A stretch of 56,082 nucleotides of DNA, the filler included, from Stramenopiles sp. TOSAG23-6 (taxonomy: Eukaryota), in assembly GCA_900128565.1 (NCBI GenBank). It is 3 parts of 3 records of this genome, joined end to end, with 100 filler letters (N's around TTAATTAATTAA, not from the genome) between each part and the next. Parts side by side here need not be neighbours in the genome. Positions count along the whole stretch, not along the records: positions 37,653 to 56,082 come from LT636062.1; 2 more parts are not named here. One strand, 5' to 3'. The first letter of the stretch is position 1. Each line of letters begins with the position of its first letter. Below the pieces are notes generated by a model that searched no databases, was not told the origin of the DNA, and saw nothing but the letters and a program-made list of their open reading frames with translations. A program made the translations under genes and the position numbers. Below, piece after piece: positions 39,772 through 42,700 of the stretch.

Positions 39772-42700
39772 TTATTTTTTCACAATAACAATTTCAGGAG
39801 CAGATGTTATACTCATGCGAGAACTCATGCGAGTATTCTTATGAGCCGAGGCTACAATTCCAGGTCCATGCACGGCACCTTCAATGTCAGTATCTTGAGC
39901 AAACTGATTAAAAATTTGTTCCAAANACGTCTGACAAATAGAATATTCCTGAATATTCATCTTATCTCTTACGTTTTCAAAAATACCAAACATTTGTGAC
40001 AAACTTAACCCATCTTGAATATCAACATGAAATCGTACTGAATGACCTTGACGTTCAATTATAGTTGCGGTGGATCCATAATTCAAGAGCATGAAATTTT
40101 GAATGGCACATACAGACTGGTGTTCTAAAGTCCAAGCTGCTACATCGCGAGCAAGTACATCTGAATCTTGAAGTCGTTTGCCTAAAGTTGAGAAAGGTAA
40201 AGCATTCAGAGGATGTGTAGGCACCACATGATAATCTTCAATATTTGTGTAAATATGCTCTTTTGATAAAACTTCTTTCAGTTCATCTTCAAACTTTGTT
40301 GGAGCAAGAGGATCTCCATATATATTGCGCAATGCACCTTGTACATTTTGCATATTAACTTTTACCGTCATGTTTTGTTCAATCTTCTTTCCAAAGTCTT
40401 CATTTATAAGTTGCTGAGTCAACGTAGAGATTGCATCCTCACTCGCTTCTTTTAGAGAAATATCAATTTGAAATCCTTTGCCAAATTTTCCCTTCAAATG
40501 TTGAATACTTCCCAAGCAACTTAAAACACCAGCCTTCATGATACCCACCCGAGAACACAAAGCTTCACACTCCTCCATTAAATGAGTTGTAAGTATCACA
40601 GAACATTGATTTTTTTTAGCCACTTTAGTAATTACATCCCACATAAAACGCCTAGCAATTGGGTCCATTCCAGTAGATGGTTCATCTAAAAACACAATAG
40701 ACGGATTGCCTATTAAAGCAATTGCAACACTCAATTTACGCTTATTACCCCCACTCAAAGTTCCGGCTCTTGAATCTGCATATTTAGTTAAATCTAGGTC
40801 TTTGATCTTTTTATTTACAACAGAAGACAACATATTCTTCGGCGTACCTTTGATTTTAGCATATAGCATCAAGTGTTCACGAGTAGTCAAATTTGCAAAA
40901 AGTGCATCAAACTGCGGGCAGTAACCAATAAGCTGACGAGCTTCATGTAAATTATGTGCAAGGTCATATCCACCAATCAAAATACGACCACTAGTAGGTG
41001 AAAATTTACCAGTGAGAGTCGAAAGTGTTGTTGTTTTACCTGCGCCATGTACTGTGAAAACATATTTTAAAAAAAAATGATATTTATGTTAGGCGCAGAA
41101 TTTGGTATACACAAAATAATAAATTTGAAATACAAAAAAAACATACATTCACTCCAAGTAATCCAAAAACTTGCCCTGCGGGAACTCCGAATGTCAACGT
41201 CTCCACGGCAACTTTAGTTTTTTGTCCTTTTGAATAGATGTGTCGTAGTTCATCCAACACAACAACATCATTAATCTTCTTATAAAACAAATCATTCTTG
41301 ATACGATTGCGTTCATTCAACACATCTTCATCAAATGTATCAATATTACACCTATCACTTTTGTTTTTATTCGAAGAACATTTAAAACTGTTCTTCTCCC
41401 AAACATAAAGAAACATGGAATAAAATATGAATTCGACAGCCATGAAAACCAAACTTAGACCACAAGATTTCAATTCCCATACAGAGTTTATTTGGTCTTC
41501 CTCATCAAAAAAATTGTTACGAAATTCCACGCTACTGGCTTGTAATATGACATTACCAAAAGCATACGAAGGAAATAAGTTAAACAAATATTGAAGATTT
41601 GTATTCAGGTCTCTATTATCCCGAAACAAGGAAAGAACCCATGACGCAATGATCAATAGAACACCTATAAAAATTCCTGCAATTAATGTAATATTCTGTG
41701 CTACTGTATGCCGCTTAAAGAGAAAGGATGATACGTATGTAAACGGTATAACACTCAGCCCGAACAATATAAATCCCGAAATTACACACAGCAAATTTAT
41801 ACCTTTAGCCATTCTCAGATCAAAGGCTTTGATTATAATCACCGCAATAGACATTGGTATCAAATAGGAAAGAAAGTCAAATAAAAAATTACTCGTCCAA
41901 TAAGAATCGAGCCGCATACCACTTACACATTGCTGGTGCTTTTGTCGAAGTTCCTTTTCACGAACTATACCAACGATAAATGAAGCAGGAATGAAGCAAA
42001 AGGCAACTGCGGAAAATAATGCAATAAATAAATCTTTCATATCTTCTGAACCAATTATCTTAGCAATTTTTGATTTTGTTCTGATCTGTGATTGAATTGG
42101 AGGAAATGGGTGTGCTGATGTCTCAATTGATGATGGTAGTTCGTCATTGTTTTGTGCATTCAAAATTACATTTGATAATAAGTTTGTGTATATACCGATA
42201 GCATGTGGACATGTTGCATTTGCATTAATAGTTACACGATCTTCATCAAATGTGTATGCACCATATTTACTTTCTTTGTGACTCAACTTAAAATCATTAT
42301 CTGGCATCATCATATCAAGAAGACTTCTTTTAATATTAAAACGTTGATTATTGTTCTTCTTCAAGATCCTCTGTGCGTGATCGTATGCACCATCTTTATA
42401 TAAACCAATATCTTCACTTGTAATAGAAGTGCGTAATAAGTAATAATTTACAGCGTCATCGATATTTTCTGTAGACTCATCGGCGTGTATAAAATTTACC
42501 CCAAAATCACTAAGCTTACTTTGACTGTCATCAGTATAGTTTTTGGATTGTCCAAATATTGGAACAGGTGTATTGGAATCACCATTGAGCTTTGAAGAAG
42601 AAAGTAAAATCTTTGGTTGTGGATTAATAAAATTTGGCCCGTTTTTGAAATCAATTTTTGTTAATAAAATACCAATTAGTAATACAATCGTTGGCAAAAG

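Follow-up and report, generated by a model that had tools for sequence, protein, structure and literature searches.

A repeated intron family with probable GT...AT ends in a genomic window of the stramenopile TOSAG23-6

Nearly all introns in a 56,082-nucleotide (nt) stretch of the genome of Stramenopiles sp. TOSAG23-6 (GenBank assembly GCA_900128565.1; three parts joined with filler, hereafter the window) appear to be copies of one short repeated element that ends in AT rather than AG. Few signals in eukaryotic genes are as conserved as the terminal AG. A preliminary description of the window had pointed to four introns in which a perfect CAG acceptor is passed over in favor of an AT located 5 nt downstream. 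This observation was confirmed, and the four sites are probably ordinary members of one introner-like intron family and not a special class. All junctions reported here were placed solely on the basis of reading frames and homology.

The intron family

Every intron that could be delimited in the window was an element of this family, about 95 nt long. In each copy, a GTAYGT-type donor is followed by a T-rich sequence, an internal box with CTAAC at its end, and a T run; the copies close with the conserved tail TTTTCACAATACAT. The 17-nt branch box ending in CTAAC occurred 27 times in the window with no more than two mismatches, against 0.01 occurrences expected. Twenty-five introns could be aligned over their full length; the median identity in the 300 pairwise comparisons was 70% and the maximum was 93%, the latter observed for two introns residing in different genes. 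A profile built from these 25 introns yielded 38 matches with E<0.001 among 48 listed. Similar copies were found at non-homologous positions in unrelated genes, the property by which introners are recognized, and all copies for which the host open reading frame (ORF) was checked were in the sense orientation. Directly upstream of the branch box, many copies carried an imperfect 16-nt palindrome (GTAC...GTAC), for example at positions 7476-7491, 39101-39116, and 48429-48444.

The terminal statistics given below are based on 29 complete, non-redundant introns with both ends fixed. This number excludes two copies with 3' ends that could not be placed (39305-39415 and 6017-5940), three copies truncated at a gap or at the end of the window, as well as the second copies in the arms of an inverted duplication, where each intron was counted once. 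Sixteen introns belonged to three conserved genes, encoding an ABCA transporter, SGT1, and the PP2A B55 subunit, and their junctions were aligned with homologues without gaps. The removal of 12 further introns joined long ORFs in frame. For the intron at 37734-37842, a fit is obtained only if a 21-nt micro-exon is read in a short frame of 18 codons. With this qualification for 37734-37842, excision at GT...A[T/G] restored the reading frame for all 29 elements. The apparent micro-exon (37713-37733, plus strand) is located between family introns ending at position 37712 and starting at position 37734.

Searches for the family motifs in other sequence collections gave little. The branch box matched 64 stretches in metagenome contigs, none of which was family-like outside the motif itself, and six single matches were found in viral contigs. 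The 17-nt tail motif gave only single matches in prokaryote genomes, in unrelated bacterial and archaeal records. Neither an autonomous element nor an intergenic copy was seen in the window, and no clear case of target-site duplication beyond AT was observed there.

Intron termini

The first intron position was G in all 29 introns and the second was T in 28, the single exception being a GA donor. An A at +3 (25/29) and a T at +6 (28/29) correspond to a U2-type donor. A CT[AT]A[CAT] branch-like motif was present in 27 introns, and each of the positions -16 to -11 was occupied by T in 25-29 of the 29, so that the yUnAy branch sequence and the following pyrimidine tract expected for U2-type introns are both present. 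The 3' dinucleotide departs from the U2-type AG: it was AT in 25 introns and AG in four. The A at -2 was invariant (29/29), and position -1 was occupied by T (25) or G (4). The last three bases were CAT in 22 cases, TAT in two, AAT in one, CAG in three, and TAG in one. Further upstream, A was found at -9 in 27 introns, and C was frequent at -10 (24 introns) and at -8 (23 introns).

U12-type signals were missing. The RTATCCTT donor is not consistent with the observed composition, with C at +5 in 2/29 introns and at +6 in none, and no TCCTTAAC branch box was found near the 3' end, the tail carrying instead a TTCAC-like box at -12 to -8.

A G at -6 was found in four of the 29 introns, precisely those singled out earlier. 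Since CAG differs from the consensus tail TTTTCACAATACAT by one A-to-G transition, these CAGs represent incidental variation rather than enrichment of a signal. Moreover, the family as a whole normally ends in AT, and therefore the skipping of CAG is no separate phenomenon but a corollary of this property, a point missed in the preliminary description.

Junctions of the four introns with an unused CAG

The four introns end in CACAG followed by five nucleotides to AT, exactly as had been described, with the G of CAG at -6 and the predicted junction 5 nt after the CAG in each. They are as follows:

41047..41146, minus strand: 100 nt, GT...AT, ending CACAG TACAT; ABCA transporter gene, just before the Walker A motif of the second ATPase domain; unused CAG at 41054-41052
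37983..38074, plus strand: 92 nt, GT...AT, ending CACAG AACAT; gene read earlier as Sfi1, a label that was not confirmed; unused CAG at 38067-38069
49071..49176, plus strand: 106 nt, GT...AT, ending CACAG TTCAT; SGT1 gene, where the SGS region starts; unused CAG at 49169-49171, with a further unused AG 19 nt from the intron end
53188..53346, minus strand: 159 nt, GT...AT (AAT end), ending CACAG GAAAT; PP2A B55 subunit gene; unused CAG at 53195-53193

The preliminary description held that the use of these CAGs would shift the frame and destroy conserved motifs, and for the three conserved genes comparison with homologues bore this out. In the ABCA gene, removal of 41146-41047 joined ORFs of 1172 and 373 codons in phase 0 and restored a gap-free Walker A motif; the summed local score against six homologues was 1362 with the AT junction and 530 with the CAG acceptor. 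A compensating shift of the donor, named beforehand as a case that would refute the claim, did not rescue the CAG: the only in-frame combination of a GT with this acceptor scored 1278 versus 1362 and inserted four residues into the P-loop. The six-intron model of SGT1 showed no gap at any junction in alignments with the homologues P0241 and P0242, with scores of 762 and 562 for the AT end versus 683 and 372 for the CAG at 49171. For B55, an eight-intron model compared with 10 homologues scored 8029, versus 7658 with the CAG at 53193, and the score was lower for all 10 homologues.

For the gene containing the intron at 37983-38074, the evidence consists only of ORFs. Removal of the intron joined ORFs of 126 and 117 codons in phase 0, while the CAG acceptor led to a stop after eight codons. 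A Pfam search with four exons of this gene returned no families for three of them and a sub-threshold match to DUF4097 for the fourth; Sfi1 was not among the results, and this label was thus not confirmed.

Position of the 3' end

In 26 of the 29 introns, the junction was located 7 nt after a T[TC][CT]A[CAT] (TTCAC-like) box, that is, 6 nt after ...CACA. The distance from CTAAC to the junction ranged from 22 to 48 nt, with one case of 137 nt. A check of both distances had been proposed earlier; within the window, the spacing from the TTCAC-like box proved fixed and that from CTAAC did not. One or more unused AGs were present between the CTAAC box and the junction in nine of the 29 introns, and the depletion of AG within the last 35 nt was no more than mild (11 observed versus 17.5 +/- 3.3 in shuffled sequences). 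Together with the predominance of AT ends, these data support the proposal, already made in the preliminary description, that the 3' end would not be set by scanning for the first AG.

Several natural variants are informative. In the introns 9900-9995 and 54137-53973 (B55), the position 7 nt after the box reads AG and is used. In the B55 intron 54576-54485, an AG 6 nt after the box is used despite a CAT 4 nt downstream (scores 8029 versus 2517). In the B55 intron 53511-53391, an AT 7 nt after the box scores better than TTCAG located 6 nt downstream (8029 versus 7843, in all 10 homologues). The 3' site thus seems to follow the conserved tail rather than the nearest AG. The earlier statement that the 3' end is set by distance from the box holds as a description; since the box and the terminus are inherited as one block, spacing alone cannot separate measurement from the box and recognition of the terminal ACA[T/G].

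Proposed mechanism and alternative explanations

We regard as probable, although far from settled, that these elements are spliceosomal introns of the introner type with GT...AT ends, for which the second step of splicing would accept U or G and the 3' site would be fixed by the tail. An element would be excised from GT to the final AT of the tail, while a minority of copies read AG at the same final position. In the four introns discussed above, an A-to-G change at -6 would have created a CAG within the tail, where it stays unused. Removal by the major spliceosome is likely in view of the conservation of the donor, of the yUnAy branch box, and of the pyrimidine run. The second step in this lineage would tolerate either U or G as the final intron base after the invariant A, and the conserved tail, through its position and ACA[T/G] ending, would define the 3' site without a search for AG. 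The family could have spread by insertion at AT|G-like sites, which would explain the AT preceding most donors and the occurrence of head-to-tail copies (53822-53637). These copies and a partly duplicated one (48552-48783) fit such insertion. A broader proposal, which we put forward tentatively, is that GU...AU represents the normal intron of the MAST-3-type host stramenopile: one mobile family may have colonized AT|G sites and supplied most introns, with the second step acting on a terminal U at a site chosen by the conserved tail, possibly by a proximal branch box, and with nearby AGs ignored.

Several points weigh against this interpretation. The sample is a single 56-kb window of an assembly with visible artefacts. 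We know of no studied spliceosome in which U at the last intron position satisfies second-step recognition. The tail is conserved as a block, and its role in site choice is deduced from spacing and a few natural variants. No near-identical transcript was present among the protein representatives searched, where the first exon of SGT1 had two matches (49% and 35% identity) and the ABCA exon had none above 52% identity among the 150 matches listed. Finally, the two bases before the donor were AT, the same as the intron end, in 21 of the 29 introns, and for these the encoded protein is identical with GT-AT and AT-AC boundaries. Five of the eight introns without this repeat also encode the same protein in the -2 register according to codon reading, and for the ABCA intron starting at 44729 the shift changes a residue but the scores are alike (1421 versus 1420).

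The true boundaries could accordingly lie two bases upstream at both ends, making these introns U2-type AT-AC introns with the first A and the last C as an alternative terminal pair. Such an A1-C(-1) pair is established as compatible with the major spliceosome, and the lone GA donor (48885) would cease to be exceptional. However, the eight introns without an upstream AT would then start with TT, AA, AC, GT, TT, GT, TA, or GG, and the conserved GTAYGT would fall at +3 to +8. In addition, the AG-ending copies need GT-AG boundaries: the tail of the B55 intron 54137-53973 ends with AG at the same column, and there GT-AG was better than the -2 shift for all 10 homologues (8029 versus 7977), and in SGT1 the GT-AG register of 49279-49373 scored 562 versus 558. 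The GT...AT register appears to be favored since it is the only one uniform for all 29 introns, while AT...AC misfits the eight repeat-less introns and the AG-ending copies. AT precedes the donor in three of the four AG-ending introns too, and it may reflect a donor context or an insertion-site preference rather than a true duplication. On balance, AT...AC boundaries are unlikely. That the CAGs are used after all, by way of a compensating donor shift, because the genes are broken or pseudogenized, or because the insertions are artefacts of assembly or amplification, is very hard to credit. A perfect 7.3-kb inverted duplication and gaps inside introns do occur in this assembly, but CAG acceptors lowered the homologue scores in ABCA, SGT1, and B55, the only in-frame rescue in ABCA disturbed the P-loop, and GT...A[T/G] excision restored the frame throughout, with all checked copies in the sense orientation.

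The preliminary description also offered end-to-end pairing as a determinant of the 3' end. The family termini, ATGTAT and ATACAT, are indeed complementary: 79% of the cells in a 6-bp terminal helix were pairable, and the arms reached 9 nt in one subfamily. Complementary ends might be brought together for a structure-guided and possibly non-spliceosomal removal, as proposed for euglenid nonconventional introns and for the hairpin introns of Amoebophrya. A terminal helix closed the minimum-energy folds of five of 10 introns, and among the three introns in which +3 is T, two carried a purine at -5 (exact test, p ~0.02, uncorrected). Nevertheless, terminal pairing was no higher than in shuffled sequences, 129 of 500 of which reached it, and the same was true for covariation (125 of 500). 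RNAalifold predicted no pairs for the 25 aligned introns, the helix was absent in all three of the four flagged introns that were folded, and only one of 10 introns was clearly more stable than its shuffles (z = -3.6; between -2.0 and +0.6 for the other nine). The strong conservation of the donor, branch box, and T run points to the spliceosome instead. Pairing of the termini would not be needed, and we consider removal guided by it improbable. A refinement of the spliceosomal interpretation would make the TTCAC-like box the branch site, since it fits yUnAy with the A at -9; the 3' site would be anchored shortly downstream, and a CAG only 3 nt from the branch A would lie too near to be used. 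The strict 7-nt spacing in 26/29 introns, compared with 22-48 nt from CTAAC, and the conservation of positions -10 to -8 agree with it, and anchored spacing is known in Trichomonas, Giardia, and Yarrowia (PMC2483917). Still, CTAAC fits the strong branch consensus better, is at least equally conserved, and is located at the usual U2-type distance, whereas the TTCAC-like box directly follows the T run, where the pyrimidine tract is expected; the introns described for the three species with anchored spacing have no such tract (PMC2483917). This refinement could hold, but we find it doubtful.

Comparison with known introns

Micromonas introners have GT-AG ends, and U12-type introns tolerate several 3' dinucleotides, GT-AT among them. 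The family resembles the U12-type in the flexible 3' dinucleotide and in a 3' site apparently set by distance from an upstream motif, but its donor is not RTATCC (T at +6 in 28/29) and it has no TCCTTAAC-type box near the 3' end. AT/AC termini are described for minor introns (PMC13326754).

Two known systems come closest in the accounts consulted. These are non-canonical introns in the larvacean Fritillaria borealis (PMC13326754) and the hairpin introner elements described for Amoebophrya (PMC7789003); the family is set apart from both by the retained GT, the strong branch box, the T run, and the uniformly changed last base. Most introns of F. borealis are reported to escape the GT/AG rule, with a conserved U2-type spliceosome and changed recognition of the 3' end (PMC13326754). 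GT/AG introns account for less than 10% of the total in that species, with variation at both ends, while the family keeps GT and only the last base is changed. In addition, the introns studied here form one sequence family with a strong CTAAC box, in a different eukaryotic supergroup. The introner elements of Amoebophrya are likewise repeated intron families of a marine protist, with inverted repeats at the 5' and 3' ends, an appearance like that of miniature inverted-repeat transposable elements, and short direct repeats across the exon/intron borders that blur the exact border (PMC7789003). Their inverted repeats are 8-20 nt long and the direct repeats 3-5 nt, with no dominant terminal dinucleotides described (PMC7789003). 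Our family has complementary termini of 6-9 nt, a 2-nt AT repeat at both borders in 21/29 introns, uniform GT...AT ends, a branch box, and a T run, and does not qualify as hairpin introns in that sense. With regard to the transposon hallmarks of introners, namely terminal inverted repeats and target-site duplications, the complementary termini and the AT repeat give an equivocal picture, as AT is also found before three of the four AG-ending introns.

The introners of Micromonas, Aureococcus, and dinoflagellates are comparable in that near-identical introns are found at unrelated positions and in unrelated genes, form subfamilies, and occur as head-to-tail or nested copies (bioRxiv 10.1101/2022.06.06.494994; PMC12130899); those of Aureococcus are described as having canonical splicing motifs (PMC7789003). 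Introns of Trichomonas, Giardia, and Yarrowia also have a motif with short, fixed spacing to the 3' terminus and an ACA-rich tail, but they end in AG, are described without a pyrimidine tract, and their anchored motif is a CTAAC-type branch site (PMC2483917). In the present family, CTAAC is located 22-48 nt upstream and the TTCAC-like box is anchored instead. Euglenid nonconventional introns share non-canonical ends and the potential of the two ends to pair, and differ by variable borders and a stable structure joining the ends (PMC4770533, PMC12501133); the family has uniform borders, conserved spliceosomal signals, and a structure without statistical support, and does not fall into this class.

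In the literature covered, we found no report of GT-AT introns in stramenopiles, in marine stramenopile (MAST) lineages including MAST-3, or in Incisomonas, nor of such non-canonical introners, although the supplements of PMC5778133 and PMC7789003 and the introner survey datasets could bear on novelty. The passages covered of the paper on single-cell genomes of MAST lineages do not mention non-canonical introns.

If the proposed interpretation is correct, about 85% of the sampled introns end in AU while the donor and branch box are intact, which would reveal how the last base is read in the second catalytic step and how far this step can drift; natural G/T variants at the same final position are already available for comparison. 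It would be a natural, lineage-wide replacement of the AG rule of the 3' splice site with the GT rule kept, and a heterotrophic marine stramenopile would have provided a new family of mobile introns whose insertion context is defined.

Genome annotation and assembly

The database protein P0121 (386 aa) is derived from the B55 gene of this window (52800-55143, minus strand) and is 94% identical to its first exon; the source of P0121, a MAST-3 marine stramenopile assembly, makes a lineage of this type the most likely host. It contains translated intron sequence, lacks 12 residues of exon 1, and has no C-terminal part. P0121 was considered as a spliced transcript of B55 and rejected, being a mis-spliced genome annotation with translated intron sequence. 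A gene model limited to GT-AG introns failed on B55 in this case. Gene finders that accept only GT-AG introns will disrupt the majority of genes in such a genome, and gene counts and inferences of gene loss made from such annotations may need revisiting.

The window contains a perfect inverted duplication of 7272 nt, with arms at 18805-26076 and 30381-37652 that are 100% complementary, including the N-run gap linkers, and are separated by 4304 nt. It is probably a chimera of scaffolding or whole-genome amplification and not a biological feature. Assembly gaps at about 18805-18900 and 37555-37650 (N runs around the TTAATTAATTAA linker) are located inside family introns, with the 5' half on one side and the 3' half on the other, and the repeated intron family seems to break the assembly. 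An Rfam search of the window returned only two tRNA matches, at 29648-29715 and 30035-30102 on the plus strand; they have equal scores (51.3 bits), are 387 nt apart, and lie in the spacer between the arms of the duplication.

Other family introns in the window

Seven further introns of the B55 gene span 52971..54576 on the minus strand, and the model including them was gap-free at the junctions with 10 homologues:

54576-54485, minus strand: ends TAG
54405-54298, minus strand: ends TAT
54137-53973, minus strand: ends CAG at the tail position where other copies have AT
53822-53728 and 53727-53637, minus strand: directly adjacent head-to-tail copies without an intervening exon, both ending CAT
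53511-53391, minus strand: ends TAT, 6 nt before the unused TTCAG
53066-52971, minus strand: ends CAT

Removal of both head-to-tail introns (53637-53822) leaves an uninterrupted series of codons matching the homologues. For 54405-54298, an alternative with the donor and the end both placed 4 nt upstream scored 8039 versus 8029; it also ends in AT.

The remaining introns of SGT1 and ABCA are the following:

48390-48481, plus strand: SGT1, ends CAT
48552-48783, plus strand: SGT1, 232 nt, a partly duplicated or nested copy with two branch boxes, ends CAT; removed as one unit according to the alignment with homologues
48885-48983, plus strand: SGT1, GA donor, ends CAT
49279-49373, plus strand: SGT1, ends CAG
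49509-49615, plus strand: SGT1, ends CAT
44627..44729, minus strand: second intron of ABCA, 103 nt, ends CAT, with an N in the donor hexamer; joins ORFs of 398 and 1180 codons in phase 0

Other complete introns were as follows:

898-994, 7438-7536, 9290-9383, 9900-9995, and 12043-12132, plus strand: an eIF2B-epsilon-like gene and a Na+/H+ exchanger gene with a cyclic-nucleotide-binding domain; 9900-9995 ends CAG
24690..24785, plus strand: ends CAT; an identical copy at 31767-31672 (minus strand) in the duplicated arm was counted once
37734-37842, 38411-38514, 38753-38850, and 39064-39155, plus strand: the gene with the flagged intron 37983..38074, all ending CAT
50333-50247 and 50058-49959, minus strand: unnamed gene, both ending CAT

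Incomplete or degenerate copies were as follows:

18748-18804 and 18903-18970, plus strand: 5' and 3' halves of a copy split by an assembly gap (region 18743..18973), mirrored at 37554-37487
37651-37718: 5' end lost in a gap
56082-56011, minus strand: cut by the window end
39305-39415, and 6017-5940 on the minus strand: degenerate 3' ends that could not be placed

The introns are unevenly distributed among the genes. B55 has eight and SGT1 has six, while long genes contain few or none, as seen for a 1259-codon ankyrin protein, for most of ABCA, and for an intron-less ORF of 522 codons (51064-52632, plus strand) that encodes ankyrin repeats followed by a C-terminal chromo domain.

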